Shown: in pieces, positions 2,682-32,060 of the stretch
How positions within the stretch are numbered: the first letter of the stretch is position 1
Layout: each line of letters starts with the position of its first letter
From: Candidatus Eiseniibacteriota bacterium
GTDB lineage: Bacteria; Eisenbacteria; RBG-16-71-46
Direction of reading: 5' to 3'
NCBI GenBank assembly: GCA_963717935.1
Contig: CAVQXP010000001.1
Coordinates: forward strand, 32,001 to 96,000
Length of the DNA: 64,000 bases
Translations under genes and position numbers: made by a program
Notes under the pieces: generated by a model
Told to the model about the DNA's origin: nothing
Database searches by the model: none
The model's input: the letters and a program-made list of their open reading frames with translations, nothing else

Positions 2682-4364
2682 GTGCTCGAACGCCTGGTCA
2701 TCCGCGACCTCGTGCTGGTGGAGCGGGCCGAGGTGGAATTCGGCCCGGGCCTCAACGTGGTGACCGGGGAGACCGGCGCGGGCAAGTCCCTGCTGGTGCA
2801 GGCCGTGGACCTGCTCACCGGCGGCCGCGCCGACCCGGGCGTCGTGCGCGTGGGCGCGAAGGCCGCGGTGGTCGAGGGCGAGTTCCGCCCTTCGCCGCGC
2901 GCCGCCCTGCGGGTCGGGCCGCTGCTCGCATCGTGGGGCATCGAGTGCGACGGTGAGAGCCTCATCCTCCGGCGCGAGGTCCAGACCGGCGGCAAGAGCC
3001 GTGCCCTGGTGAACCAGTCGGCGGTGACGCGAGGCGCGCTGCGGGAGCTGTGCGAGGCGCTCGCGGACCTCCATGGCCAGCACGAGCACCAGAGTCTGCT
3101 GCGCGCCGACGCGGGCCTCGAGACCCTCGATCGGCTCGCGGCGTTCGAGGGTGAGAGCGCCCGCTACGCGCAGGCGCTGTCCGCCTGGCGCGCTGCCGCC
3201 TCCCAACTCGAGGCGCTCGAGCGCTCGCTGGCGACGTACGCCGAGCGGCGCGAGTGGATGGAGCAGGCGGCGCTCGAGCTGGACGAGGCACGCCTGCGCG
3301 AGGGCGAGGACGACGAGCTCCGGCTCGAGGCCGCGCGCCGGGCCCACGCCGACCGCCTGCGCGAGCTGGTGGAGCAGGCGCTCGGGCGGCTCTCGGATGG
3401 CGAAGCGCCGGCCGTGGACGCCATCGCCCAGGCCGGGCGCGCGCTCGAGCAGGCGGCCGCGCTCGACCCGAGCCTCGCGGAGTCCCTGCCTGCGCTCGAC
3501 GAGGCGCGCATCGCCGCGACCGAGGTCGCGCGCGCTCTCGGCGAGTATGCCTCGCGCCTCGAGGCCGACCCGGCCGCGCTGGAGCAGATCGAGTCCCGGC
3601 GCGAGACGATCGCCCGGCTCGTGCGGAAGCACCGCCGCGACGTGCCCGCGCTGATCGCCTGGCGCGTGGAGCTGGGCCGTGAGCTCGCCACGGGGGAGGA
3701 CGCCGAGGCCGCGCTGTCGCGCGCGCGCGCCGCCGCGCAGGAGACGCACGCGGCCTGCCACGCCGCGGCGCGCGCCCTCTCGCGCAGACGTCAGGCGGCC
3801 GCGAAGGAGTGGGGGATGAGGCTCACGAAGGAGATGAAGCCGCTCGGGATGCAGCATGCGAGCCTCGGCTTCCGGGTCGAGCCGGACGACGGCCCGGAGC
3901 CCGCCTTCGCTGCGCACGGGCTCGACCAGGTCGAGATCATGTTCAGCGCCAACCCGGGCGAGCCTGCCCGGCCGCTGCAGCGGATCGTCTCGGGCGGCGA
4001 GCTTTCCAGGGTGATGCTGGCTCTGAAGGTAGCGCTGGAAGCCCAAGACCCCGTTGACCTTCTGCTGTTCGATGAAGTGGATTCCGGGATCGGCGGCGCG
4101 GTCGCCCAGGCGGTCGGGGAACGCCTCAAGCGCCTGGCGCGGCACCGCCAGGTCATCTGCGTGACCCACCTGCCGATGATCGCCGCCCTCGCCACCCATC
4201 ACCTGCGGGTGGACAAGTCCGTGGCGGCGGGCCGCACGGTGGCGCGCATCGTGGTGGTCGAGGACGGAGCGCGCGTCGAGGAACTCGCCCGGATGCTGGC
4301 CGGCGACCGCGTCACCGACACCACACGGCGTCAGGCCCGCGAGTTGCTGGGGGCGGGCGCGTGA
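2682..4364 (+). CDS. recN: DNA repair protein RecN
   Basis: TGETGAGKS Walker A, LHGQHEHQ, SGGELSRVMLAL, FDEVDSG and VTHLP. Confidence 0.97.
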   Translation: MLERLVIRDLVLVERAEVEFGPGLNVVTGETGAGKSLLVQAVDLLTGGRADPGVVRVGAKAAVVEGEFRPSPRAALRVGPLLASWGIECDGESLILRREVQTGGKSRALVNQSAVTRGALRELCEALADLHGQHEHQSLLRADAGLETLDRLAAFEGESARYAQALSAWRAAASQLEALERSLATYAERREWMEQAALELDEARLREGEDDELRLEAARRAHADRLRELVEQALGRLSDGEAPAVDAIAQAGRALEQAAALDPSLAESLPALDEARIAATEVARALGEYASRLEADPAALEQIESRRETIARLVRKHRRDVPALIAWRVELGRELATGEDAEAALSRARAAAQETHAACHAAARALSRRRQAAAKEWGMRLTKEMKPLGMQHASLGFRVEPDDGPEPAFAAHGLDQVEIMFSANPGEPARPLQRIVSGGELSRVMLALKVALEAQDPVDLLLFDEVDSGIGGAVAQAVGERLKRLARHRQVICVTHLPMIAALATHHLRVDKSVAAGRTVARIVVVEDGARVEELARMLAGDRVTDTTRRQARELLGAGA

Positions 4365-5848
4365 CGGCCGCGCACGACCGTCCCGTGACTCCCGGGCGCG
4401 ACGAGTTCCGCGCGCTCGCGGCGGGCGGCAGACATGTCCCGGTCTACCGCGACGTCCCCGCCGACCACGAGACGCCCGTCTCCGCCTTCCGCAAGCTCGA
4501 CGACGGTGCCCACGCCTTCCTGATCGAGAGTCTCGAGGGTGGCGAGAAGTGGGGGCGGTTCTCCGCGCTGGGGAGCAGGCCCACGCTGGTCTTCACGGCC
4601 CGCGGCGAGCGCTGCGAGATCCTCGAGGACGGTGTCACGCGCCCCTGCGCCGGCCCGCCCCTCGATGAGTTGCGGGACCTGCTCGCGGGACGCCACGCCG
4701 TCGCCCTGCCGGGACTGCCGCGCTTCTGCGGGGGCGCGGTGGGCTACCTCGGCTGCGGCGCCGCGCGCTGGTTCGGGCGACGGACCGCGAAGGCGCCCGC
4801 CGGGCCCGGGCCGCCCGATGCCGTGTTCCTCGTCACCGGCGTCGTCACCGTCTTCGACCACGTCGCGCACACCGTCAAGGTCGTGACCCACGCGCGCGGA
4901 GGGGACGACCCCGACGCGGCGTGGGCAGCGGCGGTCGGGCGCCTCGACGCGGAGATCGCGCGGCTCGAGGCCCCGCTGGCCTGGCCTGCGACGGCGGCCG
5001 GGACCCCGCTCGGGCAGCCCGCCTCGTCGTCCACGCCCGAGCGGTTCCGGTCCGCCGTCGAACGCGCCCGGGCGCACATCCGCGCGGGGGACGTGCTGCA
5101 GCTGACGCTCGCGCGGCGCCTGAGCGTGCCCGTCCAGGTGCCCGCCTTCGAGACCTACCGAGCGCTGCGCCTGACCGCCCCGTCGCCCTACAGCCACTTT
5201 CTCAGGCTCGGCGGCCTCTGTCTCGCGGGCTCCGCGCCCGGCTCGCTGGTGCGCCGCGCGGATGACGTGGTCGAGGCGCACATCCTCTCGGGGACGCGGC
5301 CGCGCGGCCGCACACCGGAGGAGGAGCGCAGGCTGGAGGAGGAGCTGCGCGCCGGGGAGCGGGAGCGCGCGGCCCACGCTCTGCGCGTGGACCTGAGCCG
5401 CAGCGACGTGGGCTGCGTGGCCGAGCCCGGCACCGTCGACACCAGCGAGTGGATGGAGGTGGAGCGCCATTCGCAGGCCATGCACCTGGGGTCCACCGTC
5501 CGTGGCCGGCCGCGGCAGGACGCCGGCCCGCTGGACCTGCTGGGGGCCTGCTTCCCCGCCGGCGGCGACTGCGGCGTGCCCCGGCCCCGGGCCCTGGAAC
5601 TCATCGAGGAGCTGGAGCCGGCGTCGCGCGGGGTCCACGCCGGGGCGGTCGGATACTTCGACCTTCGAGGCGGCCTGGACCTGTGCAGCGCCGCGCACAC
5701 GCTGGTCCTCGCCGACGGGCGCGCCGACTGGAGCGCGGGGGCCGTGATCGCCGCGGACACCGACCCCGAGGCGGCGTGGCGCGAGACCCAGGACCAGGCC
5801 CGCGGGCCGTGGCTCGCCCTTCAGCGCGCCACGGGAGCCTCGCGATGA
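4361..5848 (+). CDS. trpE: Anthranilate synthase component I homolog, catalytically degenerate (TrpE*)
   Basis: ETPVSAFRKL, LIES, GRFS, PRFCGGAVGY, PSPY, GTRPRG, FPAG and GAVGYF scaffold motifs are present. Active-site residues are substituted (see findings). GTGA overlap with recN. Confidence 0.9.
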   Translation: MTAAHDRPVTPGRDEFRALAAGGRHVPVYRDVPADHETPVSAFRKLDDGAHAFLIESLEGGEKWGRFSALGSRPTLVFTARGERCEILEDGVTRPCAGPPLDELRDLLAGRHAVALPGLPRFCGGAVGYLGCGAARWFGRRTAKAPAGPGPPDAVFLVTGVVTVFDHVAHTVKVVTHARGGDDPDAAWAAAVGRLDAEIARLEAPLAWPATAAGTPLGQPASSSTPERFRSAVERARAHIRAGDVLQLTLARRLSVPVQVPAFETYRALRLTAPSPYSHFLRLGGLCLAGSAPGSLVRRADDVVEAHILSGTRPRGRTPEEERRLEEELRAGERERAAHALRVDLSRSDVGCVAEPGTVDTSEWMEVERHSQAMHLGSTVRGRPRQDAGPLDLLGACFPAGGDCGVPRPRALELIEELEPASRGVHAGAVGYFDLRGGLDLCSAAHTLVLADGRADWSAGAVIAADTDPEAAWRETQDQARGPWLALQRATGASR

Positions 5849-6437
5849 TCGGGGTCATCGACAACCACGGCGCCTTCATCGGCAGCCTGCTGCAGTACCT
5901 GGCCACGCTCGGTGCACGCTTCGAGGTCCACGCGAACGACGCCATCACGGCCGAAGCGCTGGGCGCGCGTCCGATCGAGGGCCTGGTGCTGTCGTCCGGG
6001 CCGGGGGATCCGACGGCTGCCGGCGTGACGCCCGAAGCGATCCGCCGGTTCGCCGGCCGCGTGCCCATCCTGGGCATCGGCCTCGCTCACCAGGCTCTGG
6101 CCCAGGTCTACGGCGCGAAGCTCGCACCGGCCCCGGACCTCCTGCACGGCACGACGAGCCCCGTGCTGCACCGGGGCCGGGGCCTCTTCGCCGGTCTCGA
6201 GAACCCCTTCGCGGCAGCGCGCTATCATGCGCAGGTCGTGGAGCGCGAGTCCCTGCCCCGCACCCTCGAGATCACGGCCTGGACCCCCCAGGGGGAGATC
6301 ATGGGGCTGCGACATCGCGATCACGAGTGCTGGGGTGTACAGTTCCCGCCCCAGTCCATCCTGACCTGCCCGGGCCTCAGGCTCGTGGAGAACTTCCTTG
6401 TCGCTGTGCCGCCATCACAAGGGAGGTACCCCAGTGA
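5845..6437 (+). CDS. trpG: Anthranilate synthase component II (class I glutamine amidotransferase) homolog lacking the catalytic triad (TrpG*); 3' end ambiguous
   Basis: MIGVIDN.., SGPGDP, PILGIGLAHQ, ARYH, GVQFPPQSILT, LVENFL. ATGA overlap with trpE. An indel near 6395-6435 leaves either a GTGA-coupled stop or a TrpG-TrpD fusion. Confidence 0.85.
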
Positions 6438-7442
6438 TCCGCATGGCCATCGCACGCGCGGTGCTCCGCGAGGACCTGCCGCGGGAGCTGGCGCGCGCCA
6501 GCATGGAGCAGATCCTCGACGGCGACGCCACGCCGGCGCAGATCGGCGCCCTCGCCGTGGCCCTGCGCATGAAGGGCGAGACTCCCGACGGAGATCGCCA
6601 GCATGGCCGAGGCGATGCGCGAGCGCGTGCCACCCATCCGCACCAAGCGCGCGCCGCTGCTCGACACCTGCGGCACCGGCGGCGACAACGCCGGCACGTT
6701 CAACATCTCGACCACCTCGGCCATCGTGGTGGCGTCGTGCGGCGTGGCGGTGGCCAAGCACGGCAACCGCGCGGTCTCGAGCCGCACCGGGAGCGCCGAC
6801 GTGCTCGAGGCCCTGGGCGTGGGCCTCGATCTGACCCCGGAGAGCGCCGCGCGCTCGCTCGACCTGCTGGGCATCACGTTCCTGTTCGCGCCCAACTACC
6901 ACGCCGCGCTGCGCCACGCCGCGGGGCCGCGTCGCGAGGTCGGCATCCGCACGATCCTCGACCTGCTCGGCCCGCTCACCAACCCGGCCGGCGCGCGGCG
7001 GCAGCTGATCGGCGTCTTCTCCGACCGTCTGGTGCGCCGCATCGCCGAGGTCCTGAAGATCCTCGGCAGCGAGCGGGCCTGGGTCGTGCACGGCCTCGAC
7101 GGACTGGACGAGCTGACGGTGCGGGGACGCTCTCACGTCGCCGAGCTGGACCGCGGCCAGATCCGCGAATTCGAGGTGGACCCCGGGCCCCTGGGTCTCG
7201 CGCACGCCGAGCGCAGTGGCCTCGAGGGCGGGGACGCGGCCGCCAACGCCGTGCGGATCCGCGCCGTGCTGGCGGGGGAGAAGGGGCCGGCGCGCGACAT
7301 CGTCGCGCTCAACGCGGGTGGCGCGCTGGTCGTGGCCGGCGTGGTGGGGGATCTCGCCGGGGGCGTGGCGCAGGCCCAGGAGGCGATCGACAGCGGGCGT
7401 GCCGCGCGCAAGCTCGACGACCTCACGGCCTTCCGGGACTGA
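6434..7442 (+). CDS. trpD: Anthranilate phosphoribosyltransferase (one apparent +1 indel near 6590)
   Basis: GGAGG SD before GTG 6434. QIGALAVALRMKGET, DTCGTGGD, FNIST, KHGNRAVSSRTGSADVLEALG and GLDE motifs. Confidence 0.93.
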
Positions 7443-7466
7443 CCTTCATCCGAGAGGGGGCCGGAC

Positions 7467-8105
7467 ATGTTCTGCATCCGCTGCGGCGCCAACCTGCCCG
7501 AAGACGCGGCATTCTGTGCATCCTGCGGAGCCCCCGTCACCAGCGGCACGGCCGCGGCCGCGGCGGCCTCACCGCCGCCCGGCGCGGTCTCCGGGCCCTG
7601 GGCGGCCGTTCCGGCCGAACTGCCCGCGGTCCGCGCGACACGGGACTACAGCGGTTTCTGGCGCCGCTTCTGGGGCCATGTGATCGACCGCTTCATCCTC
7701 GGCGTGGTGTTCGTGCCCGTGAGCTTCATGGTCCTCGTGCCGATGATGGCCACCGAATCGGCCGGATGGACGGACACCGATCTGCCGGCCGAGGCGATCA
7801 CCGCGCTCCTGGGGGCCATCCTCGCCGTGGCATTCTTCGAGCTGTTGGGCAGCTGGCTCTACAGCGCGCTCCTGCAGAGTTCGTCGAGGCAGGCCACGCT
7901 CGGCCAGCTCGCGCTCGGCATCCACGTCACGGATCTCGAGGGACGGCGTGTCTCCTTCGCCCGCGCGAGCGGGCGCCACTTCGCGACCGTGCTCACCGGC
8001 CTCACCTTCGGCATCGGCTACCTCATCATGCTCTTCACGACGAGGAAGCAGACCCTGCACGACCTGATCGGCGGCACCGTCGTCGTGCGAACCGATCCCG
8101 CGTGA
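7467..8105 (+). CDS. Zinc-ribbon plus RDD family membrane protein
   Basis: MFCIRCG..FCASCG N-terminus, then GFWRRFWGHVID, QATLGQ..G.HV and KQTLHDLIGGTVVV. Confidence 0.88.
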   Translation: MFCIRCGANLPEDAAFCASCGAPVTSGTAAAAAASPPPGAVSGPWAAVPAELPAVRATRDYSGFWRRFWGHVIDRFILGVVFVPVSFMVLVPMMATESAGWTDTDLPAEAITALLGAILAVAFFELLGSWLYSALLQSSSRQATLGQLALGIHVTDLEGRRVSFARASGRHFATVLTGLTFGIGYLIMLFTTRKQTLHDLIGGTVVVRTDPA

Positions 8106-9712
8106 GCCGCGGGCGCCTCCCTGTTGGTGCTCCCGCCCGCGAACCCCGCCTGAGCGCGGCAGGCGGCACGGCGCGGCGCGAGGTCCTCGTGGACCTGGTC
8201 GCGATCCTCGGCGCGTGGGTCGTCTTCGCCTTCGCCCTCGGACGCGGCTCCCTGGTCACCGCCTACGACGTCTTCCGCGACATGTCCTATGCGCAGGCCA
8301 TCCTCCAGGGGCACCTCTCGCAGGACCCCTCGATCCCGGGCTTTCGCGCGTGGTATCCGCCGGGGAACCCGCTCACCTTCGCGGGGCTGGCGACCCTGAC
8401 GCGGATCTCACCGGTGGATCTCTACGCGACCAGCCTCTACTGGCTCGGCTGGATCAATCCGGTTGCCCTCTATCTTCTGGTGCGCTCCCGTTGGGGCCGC
8501 GCCACGGCGCTTGTGTCCCTGGCCACCGTCCTCCTCGGTTCGTTCTGGTGGTTCACCCACATGGCCATGCCGATGGCGAGCATCCAGGGCGTCGCGCTGG
8601 GCCTGCTCGCCCTGCTCGCCTGGACGACCGATCGCGGCCGCGGGTTCCGCCGCGCGGCCCTCACGGGCGTGCTCCTGGCGCTGGCGATCTGGCACCATCC
8701 GATCTGCGGAGCGCTGGCGATGGGCAGCATCGTCGTACACGGAGCGGTCGCCGCGTTGCTCCCGGCGAACCGTGGCGACCCGGTCGCGTCCCGCTTCGAA
8801 CTCGCGAAGAGGGCCGCGCTGGCCAGCGCCGTGGGCCTCCTGCTCGCCGCACCGCTGCTCCTGGGCCAACTCGGCCTGTCCCGGACGAACGCGGCGCCGC
8901 ACCACTGGTTCGCGCCCGAACTCCACGACCCGCGCTTCGCGTTCCACCTGCATGCGCCGCTGATCGTGCCGCTCGGCCTCGTCGGGCTGTGGCTCGCTGC
9001 GCGCCGCTGGCGCGAGGAGGGCTGGCTCGTGGCCTATTTCGGCATCGGGCTCGCCGGGCAGATCGCCGGATACCTCGGCCATGACGCCGGATGGGGGATC
9101 CCCTGGGCGCTGCCGCACGAGTTCCAGTGGCACGAGCAACTCGCCCTGATGGTCGCAGCGGCCATCGCCACCGTCCGGCTTGCCACCTGGCTCGCCGCCG
9201 GCGTGCGGGGCGCACGGCGGGACCTGGCGCGTCGAGCCGGCATCGCCACGCTCCTCGCGCTGAGCACGGGACCCGCCCTGTTCAACCTGCCGCTCGCGAG
9301 TTCCTATCTGATGCGGCTCGACGAGCGTTGGCAGGCCTCGCTGGCGACGGCCCGCTGGATCCGCGCGAACACGCCCCTCGAGGCCGTGTTCGCGTGCCCG
9401 CCGGAGACGGGCTACTTCCTCTCCGGGCTCACCGGGCGCCGCTGCCTCGCACTGCCTCCCGGGCACATGAATCCCGCACTCGACGCGGAGGCACGTTACG
9501 CCGACGTGGCCGAGCTGTTGAACACGCCCGACGAGGAAGTCTTCCGGCGCCTGGCGGCGCGGTACGGTGCCACGCATCTTCTCGTCACGCCCGCGCCGCG
9601 CTTCCTGGCCCGCGCCCGGGAGACCTACGCCCGCTGGCGGTGTCTCGAGCCCGCCGGTCTCGCGGACAGCACGGTGCTCCTCTATCGCATCCGGCGGCCC
9701 ACGGGCCGCTGA
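8102..9712 (+). CDS. Polytopic membrane protein, probable GT-C-fold glycosyltransferase
   Basis: GTGA overlap with the RDD gene. About 10-12 hydrophobic helices, an acidic first loop (AYDVFRD..DP..WYPPG) and a soluble C-terminus with WIRANTP..GYFLSGLTGR. Confidence 0.6.
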   Translation: MSRGRLPVGAPAREPRLSAAGGTARREVLVDLVAILGAWVVFAFALGRGSLVTAYDVFRDMSYAQAILQGHLSQDPSIPGFRAWYPPGNPLTFAGLATLTRISPVDLYATSLYWLGWINPVALYLLVRSRWGRATALVSLATVLLGSFWWFTHMAMPMASIQGVALGLLALLAWTTDRGRGFRRAALTGVLLALAIWHHPICGALAMGSIVVHGAVAALLPANRGDPVASRFELAKRAALASAVGLLLAAPLLLGQLGLSRTNAAPHHWFAPELHDPRFAFHLHAPLIVPLGLVGLWLAARRWREEGWLVAYFGIGLAGQIAGYLGHDAGWGIPWALPHEFQWHEQLALMVAAAIATVRLATWLAAGVRGARRDLARRAGIATLLALSTGPALFNLPLASSYLMRLDERWQASLATARWIRANTPLEAVFACPPETGYFLSGLTGRRCLALPPGHMNPALDAEARYADVAELLNTPDEEVFRRLAARYGATHLLVTPAPRFLARARETYARWRCLEPAGLADSTVLLYRIRRPTGR

Positions 9713-9814
9713 GCGACGCCGGGTGGGCCGGGCGGGCGCAGAGGGCACGCCACCTGGCCGCCTGCGCGCGCGTTCAGGGCCCGCCGCCCGGACCCGTTCC
9801 GACGCGCCCTCCGC

Positions 9815-9843
9815 GTGACGGAGCCTGCCCGCTGTGCTATAAA
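9815..9843 (+). promoter_or_regulatory. Sigma70-type promoter for tRNA-Arg
   Basis: GTGACG (9815-20), 17 nt, TATAAA (9838-43), with an extended -10 TG; 10 nt before the tRNA. Confidence 0.7.
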
Positions 9844-9853
9844 AGCTCGTTGC

Positions 9854-9930
<77 letters not shown>

Positions 9931-9945
9931 CCTCTTCCGCCCCCC

Positions 9946-11012
9946 ATGCCAGACGTCCCGCCCGTGACCCCCGAACCCGATCCGGAAGCTCCCGGCCTGC
10001 GCGTCTTCCCGGCCGCCCGCGATCACGCCGTCCGCGAGCTGGCGGGCATGTTCGACGACGTCTCCGGCCGCTACGACCTGCTGAACTCGATGATGACGCT
10101 CGGGCAGGACCGCGCCTGGCGCGCGGCCATGTGGCGCGCCGTGCCGGAGACCGCGGGCGTCGTGCTCGACCTGTGCACCGGCACCGGCGTCTCGCTCGAC
10201 GGACTGCGGCGCCCCGGCCGCGTCCTGCTGGGCGTGGACGCGAGCCTCCGCATGCTGGAACTCGCCGCGGACGAACATGGGCCGTGGGGCTGGGCCCCGC
10301 GCCTCGCCTGCGCCGATGCCTTCCGGCTGCCGTTCCGCGACGGCGCGCTCGACGCGGTCACGATCGCCTTCGGCATGCGCAACCTGCGCCCGCGGGCCGG
10401 GGCCCTGGCGGAGCTGGCCCGCGTGCTCGCACCCGGCGGCACGCTCGTGGTGCTCGAGGCCACGGCGCCCCGGCCGGGCCCGCTCGCGCCCCTGCACCGA
10501 TTCTACGCGCGCCGCGTCATCCCGCTCCTGGGCCGGCTCTCGCCGGACCCCGTGGCCTACCGCTACCTGAGCGAGTCCATCTTCGACTTCGGCGCGGGGG
10601 AGGAGTTCGAGCACGATCTCACCGCGGGCGGCTTCGAAATCGTCGAACGTCAGGCGTATCATGTTCGGTGCAGCCCGCTTGTGGGCCGCCCAGAGGCTGG
10701 CCGGGGGGGACGGCGGGACGTTGCGAAACGCCCGGTCCAGGGCCGCTGGTCGGGGCAATTTCACGCAGGGTGGCCGTCCCTGGGAACAGGAGTGGCGCTG
10801 GTGGACGTTCGCTCACGCGATCGTCTCCGCGATCCTGACCGGGAGCCTGGTCTGGGCCCTGGTCACCTGGGTCAAATGGCGGTCCGCCATCCACTTGGAA
10901 CCCTGGCAGGATCGCATTCTCTGGCTTCTCATCCTCGTCGGCCTGGCCGGATTCGCCCTCCGGACCCTTGCCCTGCTCCTGCGATTGCTCGGCCCGCCTC
11001 CCCGCCGCCTGA
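9946..11012 (+). CDS. ubiE: UbiE/MenG-family methyltransferase, apparently with a C-terminal two-TM extension (indel near 10655; end uncertain)
   Basis: MFDDVSGRYDLLN, VLDLCTGTG, IAFGMRN, RVLAPGG and AYRYLSESI. The typical final strand (MFGAARLW) continues in another frame from 10661. Confidence 0.8.
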
Positions 11013-11026
11013 CCCGATGGGCATGG

Positions 11027-11041
11027 TGGCACACGCGTTGC
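11027..11041 (+). promoter_or_regulatory. Sigma54 (-24/-12) promoter
   Basis: Exact TGGCAC-N5-TTGC (TGGCACACGCGTTGC) about 150 nt upstream of the GGDEF gene. Confidence 0.75.
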
Positions 11042-11187
11042 GTGTTCCCAGCGGATTCTGACCCAATCGCCGAGGCCGGGGACGTCCTGGCCTCGCGGAC
11101 CTGTGTGCGGGGCAAGCCGCCCCGTCGCAGGCGCCCGGACACCGCGGGCGGGGGTCAGCAGATCGGCCCATGCTCCGGGAGCCTCCG

Positions 11188-30120: not shown

Positions 30121-32060
30121 GCCTCCTCCTTCTCCGTCACCGAGGGGAACAGCCAGTCCTCGGAGTCCTTCTGCTGCTGGTAGAGCCGGCGCGCCACCAC
30201 CAGGTGCTGGGCCAGTTCGGCGAACTTGCGCTTGCGCACACGCGGGTTGGTGGACTCGGTCCAGCGCCGGAAGACCTCGTCCTCGAACGAGCCCGAGATC
30301 TGCCAGGTCCCGAGGATCTCCTCCATCTCGCCCACCACCAGCTCGAACATGCGGATCTTGCGCTCGAGGATCTCGAGCACGTAGGCCTCGATGGTGCCGC
30401 GCGCGACCAGGTTGATGACGCGCACCGGGTGGCGCTGCCCGAGGCGGTGCACGCGCCCGATGCGCTGCTCCACGCGCATCGGGTTCCACGGCAGGTCGTA
30501 GTTGATGACGATCCGCGCGAACTGGAGGTTCCGCCCCTCGCCGCCGGCCTCGGTGCTCACCAGCACCGGCGAGACGGTGCGAAAGTGCTCGAGCGCCTCC
30601 TCCTTCTCGCGCCAGCCCAGCTCCCCGTGGAAGACCGACGGCTCCACGCCCGTGGCCTCCAGGGCGGAGACGATGGCGTCCTGGGTGGAGCGGAACTGCG
30701 TGAAGATGATGGCCTTCTCCCCCGCGAGCCCGCCCAGCACGCGCTGCAACGTGCGCAACTTCGACGGACTCGCCGAGACCGCCTCCGCGCGCGCGGCCAG
30801 CAGCTTCAGGCGCCGCTGGTCGAGCCCGTCCGGGCGATGCGTCAGGCGCTCGAGCGTGGCCCGCGCCGCGGCCCAGGACGAGCCCATCTCCTTCTGCAGA
30901 ACCATGAGGGTGAAGTAGTGCGGGCGACCGGGCCCGCCGTGCTCGCCGTGGACGGCCTCGGCCACGAACTCGCTCACCTGCCGATAGAGACCGCGCTCCG
31001 GCGCGGTCTGCGTCACCCAGCGGGTCTCCACCTTGCGCGGGGCGAAGACCAGGTCGGTGTCGCCGCGCCGCGTGCGGATCATGACCACCTTGAGCAGGTT
31101 GCGCAGCCGGGGCGTGTTGCGCGGCGTGCGCTTGTCGTGCCCCGAGAGGAAGTCACGGCGGAACTGCGAGAAGGTGCCCACCGTCCCGGGGCGCGTCAGC
31201 GTCACCAGGTTGTAGAGCTCGCGCATGTCGTTCTGGACCGGCGTGGCGGTGAGCAACAGCAGGTAGCGGGGGTTCAGGTCGTTCACGAACCTCCAGCCCA
31301 GCGTGAGGTGGTTGCGCAGGCGGTGCGCCTCGTCCACCACCACCATGTCGTAGTTGGCGCCGCGCACCCGACGGCGATGGCGCTCGTGCCGCGCGGTCTC
31401 GAGCGAGGAGATGACCAGCGGATGGCGGCCCCACTGCCCCGCCGGGCCACGGGAGACCACGAAATCGAGCTCGAACTTCTCCCACAGCTCGGCCCGCCAC
31501 TGCTCGCACAGCGAGGCCGGCACCAGCACCAGCACCGTCCGCGTCGCGCCCCGCAGCAGATACTCCTTGATGACGATGCCGGCCTCGATGGTCTTGCCCA
31601 GCCCCACCTCGTCGGCCAGGATGCAGCGCCCGTTCAGGTCGCGCATGACCTTCACGCAGGCCGCGATCTGGTGGGGGAAGCGCTCGACGCCGCGCAGGGA
31701 GTCGAGCGAGATGAGCCGGTCCGTGCCGGCCCAGCCGGACCAGCGCTCGGCCTGCGAGTGCAGCTCGAAGCGCGTGGCCGGCACCGCCCGGCCACGCTGC
31801 CAGGACTCCAGCAGCCGGTCGCCCTGCGCGTGCCAGACCCGTGCGGGCGACACGGCCTCGCCCGCCGCCGGCGCGGGCGCGCCCGCCTCCACGACGACCC
31901 ACTCGCGTTGCGCCGAGAGGCGGCGCAGCCGGCCGTCGAAGACCACCTCCAGCACCTCGCGGCCGCGGTCGGTGTGGACCTCGACCACGAGGCCCTCGCC
32001 GAACTGCGGGTGCCGCAGCCGCTGGCCGACCTGGTAGGCCTGGGCCTTCGTCAACTCCAC
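30117..32060 (-). CDS. SNF2-family helicase (YqhH/RapA-like) with an N-terminal Tudor-like domain
   Basis: PHQ, ILADEVGLGKTIEAG, VDEAHRL, LTATPVQN, STEAGGEGRNLQ and NYDLPWNPMRVEQRIGRVHR. Confidence 0.92.
   Translation of the reverse strand: MELTKAQAYQVGQRLRHPQFGEGLVVEVHTDRGREVLEVVFDGRLRRLSAQREWVVVEAGAPAPAAGEAVSPARVWHAQGDRLLESWQRGRAVPATRFELHSQAERWSGWAGTDRLISLDSLRGVERFPHQIAACVKVMRDLNGRCILADEVGLGKTIEAGIVIKEYLLRGATRTVLVLVPASLCEQWRAELWEKFELDFVVSRGPAGQWGRHPLVISSLETARHERHRRRVRGANYDMVVVDEAHRLRNHLTLGWRFVNDLNPRYLLLLTATPVQNDMRELYNLVTLTRPGTVGTFSQFRRDFLSGHDKRTPRNTPRLRNLLKVVMIRTRRGDTDLVFAPRKVETRWVTQTAPERGLYRQVSEFVAEAVHGEHGGPGRPHYFTLMVLQKEMGSSWAAARATLERLTHRPDGLDQRRLKLLAARAEAVSASPSKLRTLQRVLGGLAGEKAIIFTQFRSTQDAIVSALEATGVEPSVFHGELGWREKEEALEHFRTVSPVLVSTEAGGEGRNLQFARIVINYDLPWNPMRVEQRIGRVHRLGQRHPVRVINLVARGTIEAYVLEILERKIRMFELVVGEMEEILGTWQISGSFEDEVFRRWTESTNPRVRKRKFAELAQHLVVARRLYQQQKDSEDWLFPSVTEKEEA

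Follow-up and report, generated by a model that had tools for sequence, protein, structure and literature searches.

The window, a 64,000-nucleotide stretch of DNA (positions 32,001 to 96,000 of contig CAVQXP010000001.1, assembly GCA_963717935.1) from a Candidatus Eiseniibacteriota bacterium, contains a tryptophan locus with the gene order recN-trpE-trpG-trpD-RDD, syntenic with relatives. Its second gene, referred to here as trpE*, is an orthologue of trpE (anthranilate synthase component I) whose product is predicted to be catalytically dead; the asterisk is used likewise for trpG and trpC genes of this kind. An earlier note on this DNA had proposed that the protein lost its chorismate and Mg2+ site while keeping its fold and part of its tryptophan site, and that it has been selected for a non-catalytic role. 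The GC content is 0.67-0.76 over the window and 0.75 in the trpE* region. The genes at the locus are the following (window positions and strand):

2682..4364, +: recN (TIGR00634, 487.5 bits, cut-off 407.85); its TGA stop shares bases with the GTG at which trpE* starts (GTGA)
4361..5848, +: trpE*, TrpE orthologue, predicted to be catalytically dead, 495 codons
5845..6420, +: trpG*, putatively dead glutamine amidotransferase (GATase) subunit, with an ATG that shares bases with the stop of trpE* (ATGA)
6434..6589, +: 5' part of trpD, GTG start, residues ~1-52, ending at a +1 insertion at 6589
6585..7442, +: remainder of trpD, 285 codons in a different frame, otherwise canonical, with GTGGD and KHGN present
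7467..8105, +: zinc-ribbon/RDD-type membrane protein gene, 3' of trpD in all relatives examined

Translation of the open reading frame (ORF) at 4361-5848 (+) gives 495 residues with zero stops; the antisense strand of the same region carries an ORF of 455 amino acids (aa). Compared with canonical orthologues the protein has no internal indel, and an N-terminus that is 7 residues longer is the sole length difference, so that the uninterrupted frame described previously was borne out by both translation and alignment. Two Pfam domains were identified, Anth_synt_I_N (residues 35-172, 78.7 bits) and Chorismate_bind (residues 227-477, 204.5 bits). The TrpE equivalogs of NCBIfam rank top, albeit far below their curated cut-offs (NF010086, 388 versus 693 bits; TIGR00564, 358.7 versus 517.7 bits). 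The closest solved structures by sequence are the mycobacterial TrpE entries 7BVD and 5CWA (E ~1e-82). An AlphaFold2 model built from a 34-row alignment has a mean predicted local distance difference test score (pLDDT) of 82.8 and a predicted template modelling score of 0.86, and Foldseek superimposes it on Mycobacterium tuberculosis TrpE 5CWA with a template modelling score of 0.87 at 37% identity; the pLDDT and the similarity to 5CWA argue that TrpE* retains the TrpE fold. Domain architecture, fold, orthology and synteny are thus those of a TrpE, whereas an equivalog-level score, the full set of catalytic Glu residues, the chorismate-site residues and an active glutaminase partner are all lacking. 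The gene is the direct descendant, at the same locus, of the native anthranilate synthase component I gene of this lineage.

Loss of catalytic residues in a single clade

The best-matching locus of 20 genomes, including the window's own, was aligned (35 of the 41 genomes searched had a match). All canonical motifs are intact in 17/17 orthologues from other genomes of the same family, i.e. SSPE, PIAGT, KERAEHVMLVDLGRND, PAGTVSGAPK, RGVYAG, IAIRT, GAGIVADS and ETLNK. Degenerate motifs are common to three of the 20 aligned genomes, namely this genome, G004 and G005. Among 5.8 billion proteins searched, 25 clusters had the same dead motifs; they are 64-100% identical to TrpE* and nearly all 494-495 aa long. 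Next below these clusters were canonical TrpE proteins of 488 aa, some labelled Candidatus Eisenbacteria, and the hosts of the dead clade are sediment bacteria, probably Eisenbacteria. In a tree of 53 rows the 25 dead sequences are monophyletic (Shimodaira-Hasegawa-like approximate likelihood ratio test, SH-aLRT, 100; stem 0.27) and nested beside the canonical TrpE of the same genus (genomes G001 and G002); the dead state has a single origin. At the DNA level, ten metagenome loci of the clade and three genomes provided 8 distinct full-length copies, while three more loci end at contig ends; L029 and L030, whose TrpG* is identical to that of L031, were excluded from this count. All 8 copies have an open frame of 1485 nucleotides (nt), at 12-18% nucleotide divergence.

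Every motif change that had been listed for TrpE* was present on re-translation and alignment. The main motifs are located as follows:

4520..4531, +: LIES (residues 54-57), start of the LLESX10S tryptophan-site motif, retained
5231..5242, +: SAPG (residues 291-294), Gly in place of the general-acid Glu of SSPE; E to G in 24/25 clade sequences
5360..5407, +: RERAAHALRVDLSRSD (residues 334-349), direct Mg ligand changed from Glu to Ala (E338A), with K334R and N348S
5555..5584, +: PAGGDCGVPR (residues 399-408), Thr of PAGT and Lys of GAPK lost, Asp403 and Cys404 new
5627..5644, +: RGVHAG (residues 423-428), substrate-carboxylate Tyr replaced; Y426 to H in 18/25, otherwise variable
5687..5701, +: SAAHT (residues 443-447), Arg of IxIRT changed to His in this genome
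5732..5797, +: SAGAVIAADT ... AWRETQDQ (residues 458-479), with G462V, E472A (Mg site) and K479Q

The other motif positions are APSPYS (273-278) and ILSGT (308-312); within the last stretch of the list, SAGAVIAADT occupies residues 458-467 and AWRETQDQ residues 472-479. Among the 25 clade sequences, K408R and E472A occur in all, E338A in 23, V403D and G462V in 22 each and K479Q in 20; T402 is replaced by A, G or S, Cys404 is recurrent, and residue 446 is H in 17 and R in 8. In the chorismate site of the present protein the changes are T402G, Y426H, R446H, G462V, K479Q and K408R. A wider alignment of 50 TrpE rows (6 from the clade and 44 from outside it), reaching relatives at only 38-62% identity, was used to check ten catalytic positions. 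These are invariant in 44/44 non-clade rows, among them the general-acid Glu, both lost Mg-site Glu residues, the Thr, two Lys, the Tyr, the Arg and the Gly. Eight of the ten are replaced in 6/6 clade rows and the Arg of IRT in 4/6, while the second Glu of ExxET, at the Mg site, is kept in 5/6. Given this invariance in 44/44 rows and the intact motifs of the 17 orthologues, the changes in TrpE* are far beyond chance.

The earlier note had counted one Mg-binding Glu as gone. Loss at the Mg site is real, but it affects two of the four Glu residues (E338A and E472A), and the loss of the general-acid Glu (E294G) comes on top of these. The loss of the substrate-binding Tyr, Arg and Lys was confirmed in the alignments (Y426H, R446H, K479Q). 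Of the catalytic site, Q247, G311-T312 (in the PIAGT loop), E335, H375 and E475 are still present. The residue roles used here are those of MbtI, transferred to TrpE by a presumed correspondence of the motifs. On this mapping, the lost functions would be the general acid, one direct and one water-mediated Mg ligand, and the ligand contacts of T402, Y426, R446, G462 and K479. According to the passages on MbtI in PMC8008425, the general acid is Glu252, Mg is bound directly by Glu297 and Glu434 and via water by Glu294 and Glu431, and the ligand is held by Thr271, Thr361, Tyr385, Arg405, Gly419/421 and Lys438.

The distribution of changes was analysed over 279 columns that are at least 95% conserved across 26 canonical sequences. 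In the clade, 189 of these are kept, 21 are mostly kept, 37 are variable and 32 have switched to another residue that at least 80% of the clade shares, including E294G, K334R, E338A, N348S, V403D, K408R, G462V, E472A and K479Q. Changed columns number 9/103 in residues 1-230 versus 60/176 in residues 231-495 (Fisher p = 1.3e-6), and 8/15 at the listed catalytic positions versus 61/264 elsewhere (p = 0.014). The losses are thus concentrated in the catalytic domain, as had been proposed, and not spread evenly over the protein. Both feedback motifs said to persist were indeed found, LIES at residues 54-57 and APSPYS at 273-278, with LLESX10S intact and the Tyr of PSPY kept; L54, E56, S57 and S68 are invariant in the clade alignment. 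The role of LLESX10S as a tryptophan-site motif is described in the available text of PMC6437058, and a Tyr and an Asp downstream of PSPY, which line the tryptophan pocket of M. tuberculosis TrpE in the same text, are also kept in TrpE*.

Selection on trpE* and the fate of the pathway genes

Ratios of nonsynonymous to synonymous substitution rates (dN/dS) were estimated by the Nei-Gojobori method (NG86); the Yang-Nielsen method (YN00) gave much lower values (0.07-0.17), often undefined at this GC content of third codon positions (GC3), and was not used. Within the clade, trpE* has a dN/dS of 0.31-0.42, with bootstrap upper bounds of at most 0.57. For the same genome pairs the values are 0.20-0.31 for recN, 0.23-0.39 for trpG*, 0.12-0.22 for trpD and 0.39-0.73 for the RDD gene, while canonical trpE has 0.24 (G001-G010) and 0.16-0.30 over the 15 closest canonical pairs. 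The GC3 of trpE* stays at 0.94. Random placement of the observed substitutions would produce about 2 stops per pairwise path, with a probability of 0.08-0.16 of no stop. Divided by domain, the N-terminal regulatory half has a dN/dS of 0.37 in the clade versus 0.30 in 36 canonical pairs, and the catalytic half 0.34 versus 0.16. The latter difference indicates that the extra constraint from catalysis is gone, with the remainder still well below 1. On the terminal branch of this genome, the private codons of trpE* comprise 6 nonsynonymous and 12 synonymous changes, a lower ratio than in any other of the 8 copies. As a neutral contrast, a trpG remnant in the sister genome G006 has decayed to 35% identity with 15% gaps.

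These data agree with the claim that TrpE* is not the product of random decay: 25 clusters are monophyletic, 8/8 frames are intact, dN/dS is 0.31-0.42, and the remnant in G006 illustrates what decay looks like. Random neutral decay of trpE* is rejected. Neither a broken frame nor a dN/dS near 1, the marks of a pseudogene, was found; instead, catalytic residues are missing while the fold is kept, and purifying selection has continued after their loss, as in a pseudoenzyme.

The partner gene shows a comparable picture. TrpG* has Gly79 in place of the Cys of the catalytic triad (6079-6081), and Pro168 and Gln170 in place of the His and Glu (6346-6354). Each of the three triad residues is found in 0/6 clade rows versus 44/44 others, and the same loss occurs in every clade locus examined. 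An intact ORF of 192 aa is present in 8 of the 9 loci that fully cover trpG*, the exception being this assembly, which has the following feature:

6398..6417, +: two single-base insertions (6398-6402 and 6415-6417), unique to this assembly, by which the usual stop of trpG* is lost

Owing to these two +1 insertions near its 3' end, the trpG* frame extends here to 6834; trpG* overlaps trpD. A third +1 insertion, at 6589, frameshifts trpD near codon 52. None of the three occurs in G004, in G005 or in the contigs of four public runs, which all come from relatives; at most 0.20 of the sampled words of this strain were present in any public run. Apart from the frameshift, trpD is canonical and strongly conserved, sharing about 80% identity with its G001 counterpart. 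Its private codons in this genome comprise 1 nonsynonymous (at the frameshift site) and 8 synonymous changes, and therefore the insertions are either very recent or assembly errors. A structure prediction of TrpE*, TrpG* and TrpD together gave a score of 0.01 for TrpD as a partner (mark 0.32), which carries weight neither way. In L038 (~1119-1629) the TrpD sequence diverges completely past about residue 100 (after GTFN); that contig may be chimeric or contain a frameshift.

Canonical relatives continue after trpD with RDD-trpC-trpF-trpB. The RDD gene is fast-evolving (dN/dS as above) and separates trpD from trpC in all relatives examined, whether these are canonical or otherwise. At this site, trpF and trpB were found in no clade locus extending that far. 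A trpC* of 270 codons is intact in two lineages (L034, 8393-9205; L037, 5687-6499), with a dN/dS of 0.39 and with all conserved motifs of IGPS (indole-3-glycerol-phosphate synthase) altered (EIKRASPS to GILRASPT, KDF to DDL, NNRDL to GSREP, ESG to WSV), which we take to be the catalytic ones. In this genome (5 contigs, 93% complete), no match to trpC or trpF and no trpB above the cut-off were found anywhere, and the only other chorismate-binding gene is PabB-like, beside a PabA-like GATase gene on contig 4. G004 and G005 possess a second, divergent and fully canonical trp operon elsewhere (E-G-D-C-F-B, 8 kb). The corresponding site is empty in this genome, with the flanks ~80 bp apart (G000 contig C2:28568-28649). 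Redundancy of trpE* owing to a second operon was therefore considered and rejected for this organism. The empty site and the lack of trpC, trpF and trpB suggest that the organism is a tryptophan auxotroph, yet trpE* is kept. In the second operon of G004, a single-contig genome, trpG aligns as two overlapping pieces in different frames (L026, 7967-8519), a frameshift or sequencing error.

Three further genomes of the same genus (G003, G006 and G007, 81-87% complete) have trpD directly after recN, with a spacing of ~70-130 bp and with its own GGAGG and GTG (L110 of G003, 560-800; L111 of G007, 520-740; L109 of G006, 168-1507). At this completeness, searches for a chorismate-binding enzyme, for IGPS and for TrpB above the cut-off yielded nothing in any of them. 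In a tree of trpD DNA these genomes are sister to the dead clade (98% SH-aLRT), and G001 and G002 fall outside. The G006 trpG remnant has the dead-type Pro at the position of the catalytic His, which indicates that TrpG died before the clade and its sister lineage split. The order of events is a canonical operon, then catalytic death of E, G and C with loss of trpF and trpB, and finally either long retention of trpE* and trpG*, as in this clade, or deletion of both, as in the sister lineage, with TrpD persisting throughout. Canonical trpD is kept in these three genomes although trpE, trpC and trpB were not detected there, and TrpD may serve a purpose other than tryptophan synthesis in this genus.

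A proposed non-catalytic pair and competing explanations

Our preferred reading, to which we give a probability of about 0.55, is that TrpE* and TrpG* form a conserved, catalytically dead pseudoenzyme pair with a non-catalytic role, and it sustains the proposal of selection for such a role, as catalysis is lost while fold, frame and constraint are kept. From its residues, TrpE* is predicted to be unable to bind Mg2+-chorismate or to catalyse amination and pyruvate elimination. It would be made as a folded protein and held by purifying selection, and most likely would still pair with TrpG*, the dead product of the adjoining, overlapping gene. The tryptophan site of TrpE* may still bind tryptophan, and such binding may be what selection keeps. 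As the tryptophan-binding N-domain is nearly as constrained as in active TrpE, the likeliest role would be that of a non-catalytic ligand-binding complex, most likely for tryptophan sensing or scaffolding, and not that of an enzyme. A bolder version, which we consider doubtful, is that the dead Trp enzymes (TrpE*, TrpG* and some TrpC*) have become a non-catalytic module in which TrpE* would act as a new kind of ligand or metal sensor of the menaquinone, siderophore and tryptophan (MST) enzyme fold, with an Asp/Cys/His-lined pocket in place of its Mg-carboxylate site, and would report tryptophan or chorismate status where tryptophan is no longer made at this locus.

Several observations weigh against a non-catalytic role of the pair. 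Within the clade both domains of TrpE* share one level of dN/dS (0.37 and 0.34), as generic folding constraint would give, and part of the constraint could act on translation of the operon rather than on TrpE* function. The tryptophan-site motif NPSPYM is altered at two residues (N273A and M278G), and tryptophan binding may therefore be altered. The sister lineage deleted trpE* and trpG*, so that the pair is dispensable there. With the same dN/dS of 0.39, trpC* was lost in several clade members including this genome, and such a value is therefore no guarantee of indispensability. Finally, the loss of the trpG* stop and the trpD frameshift would mean, if genuine, that the module is disintegrating in this genome.

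The strongest rival, possible though unlikely in our estimate, regards trpE* and trpG* as a translated spacer without function of its own, whose frames stay open because nonsense or frameshift mutations would uncouple translation and expose the still-needed trpD and RDD genes to polarity; amino-acid change would then be limited only by the cost of misfolding, and clean deletion would be the sole way out of this trap. The equal dN/dS of the two domains inside the clade would be expected in that case. Tight translational coupling also fits: the GTGA junction between recN and trpE* occurs in 7/7 clade loci, followed by ATGA at trpE*/trpG* and the trpG*/trpD overlap, whereas canonical relatives have 27-50 nt between recN and trpE, in G001 with GGAGG and an ATG start, so that the clade lost the canonical ribosome-binding-site spacer and ATG of trpE. 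So do the removal of both genes by deletion in the sister lineage, where trpD is left with its own GGAGG/GTG, and the stepwise loss of genes, trpF and trpB being gone from every far-reaching clade locus and trpC* being lost repeatedly. A spacer accounts less readily for the dN/dS of trpE*, which in these genomes is close to the recN value and lower than the value for the RDD gene, for an N-domain barely relaxed relative to active enzymes (0.37 versus 0.30), and for new clade-wide conserved residues at 32 formerly invariant positions. Moreover, trpC* lies downstream of trpD, beyond any protection by polarity, yet is intact over 270 codons in two lineages (dN/dS 0.39). The new conserved residues, at least 80% of the clade in 32/279 invariant columns, could instead reflect neofunctionalisation, in which a remodelled pocket binds a new ligand or transition metal or catalyses another reaction. 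This would agree with the long stem branch (0.27) and with the loss of carboxylates together with the gain of a conserved Asp403, a recurrent Cys404 and His at 279, 307, 370, 426 and 446. We regard it as improbable, as Tyr to His and Arg to His each need just one transition, of a kind that a GC-rich genome favours, residues 426, 446 and 370 are still variable, TrpG* without its nucleophile would not support amidotransfer, and no new neighbouring gene hints at a new pathway.

Two other explanations are far weaker. An ordinary pseudogene in neutral decay might not yet have acquired a stop, since at a GC content of 0.75 long open frames are common, as the antisense ORF of 455 aa illustrates, and neighbouring genes are frameshifted in this assembly. 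This has hardly any probability in view of the bounds on dN/dS (at most 0.57), the absence of any net indel in 8 copies at 12-18% divergence, the 25 diverged intact copies and the real decay seen in the G006 remnant. It is likewise very unlikely that TrpE* continues as an anthranilate synthase, or as a synthase of 2-amino-2-deoxyisochorismate (ADIC) or isochorismate, by means of migrated catalytic residues. What does remain is the fold, Gln247, Gly-Thr in the PIAGT loop, His375 and the Mg-site Glu residues 335 and 475. Gone, however, are the general acid, the two other Mg-site Glu and the residues for both substrate carboxylates, the partner TrpG* lacks its triad, and the enzymes that would consume the product are lacking, with no trpC, trpF or trpB in this genome.

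In full-text literature searches no paper on a dead anthranilate synthase and nothing relevant on Eisenbacteria and tryptophan was found; for the tryptophan pathway, the searched literature contained only single dead subunits regulating a live partner (Chlamydia TrpA and plant TSB-like). To our knowledge, pseudoenzymes are well documented in eukaryotic signalling, and few bacterial metabolic ones are known. Canonical TrpE/TrpG (M. tuberculosis TrpE, 5CWA) resembles TrpE* in domains, fold, locus, gene order and LLESX10S, and differs in that TrpE* lost its general-acid Glu, two of the Mg-site Glu residues and the Thr, Lys, Tyr, Arg and Lys of the chorismate site, and TrpG* its triad. Chlamydia trachomatis TrpA, as described in the available part of PMC8376405, is catalytically impaired and kept as an allosteric activator of TrpB under partly relaxed purifying selection. 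Like TrpE*, it is a subunit of the tryptophan pathway that lost activity in the course of pathway reduction and is still constrained, but there the partner TrpB is active and activation was demonstrated, whereas here both subunits are dead. In the accessible text of PMC12727527, a plant pseudoenzyme like the tryptophan synthase beta subunit (TSB-like) activates the alpha subunit (TSA) to release indole; it is likewise a non-catalytic derivative of a Trp enzyme, with a regulatory role exerted via subunit contacts, but it is a paralogue that arose by duplication and has a demonstrated function, whereas TrpE* is the orthologue itself. The viral pseudo-GATases in the excerpt of PMC7605207 have the GATase fold without catalysis and play non-enzymatic roles, comparable to TrpG*, but belong to another GATase family and another host context, and act with a cellular GATase.

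What distinguishes the present case is that both subunits of anthranilate synthase, plus IGPS in some relatives, appear dead and yet are conserved over deep divergence. Close relatives show the stages side by side, i.e. the canonical operon, dead but kept genes, and deletion, and thus form a natural series for asking what preserves an enzyme shell after its chemistry is lost, be it sensing, scaffolding or a constraint on operon translation. The case is also a warning for annotation: public records label the proteins of the dead clade 'anthranilate synthase component I', a label that would falsely predict tryptophan prototrophy.

Neighbouring genes

Beyond the RDD gene, a gene for a multi-pass membrane protein lies at ~8100-9712 of the window, before a tRNA gene. 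It is also found in L034 (~8820-10699), where it is seemingly split over two frames, and is absent in G004. An ORF of 1104 aa at 6398-9712 is a high-GC artefact that merges the 5' end of trpD with the frame of this membrane protein gene. The tRNA-Arg (CCG) gene at 9854-9930 (+) is flanked by this membrane protein gene on one side and by a gene for a UbiE-type methyltransferase (9946-11061) on the other, and the same tRNA-ubiE junction marks the limit of the shrunken trp locus of G004 and of L037. Upstream of recN, at 1-2679, the NAD kinase match covers the last ~290 residues of an open frame of 892 codons; the upstream 600 codons, which give no Pfam match in this frame, are probably part of a different gene or frame.

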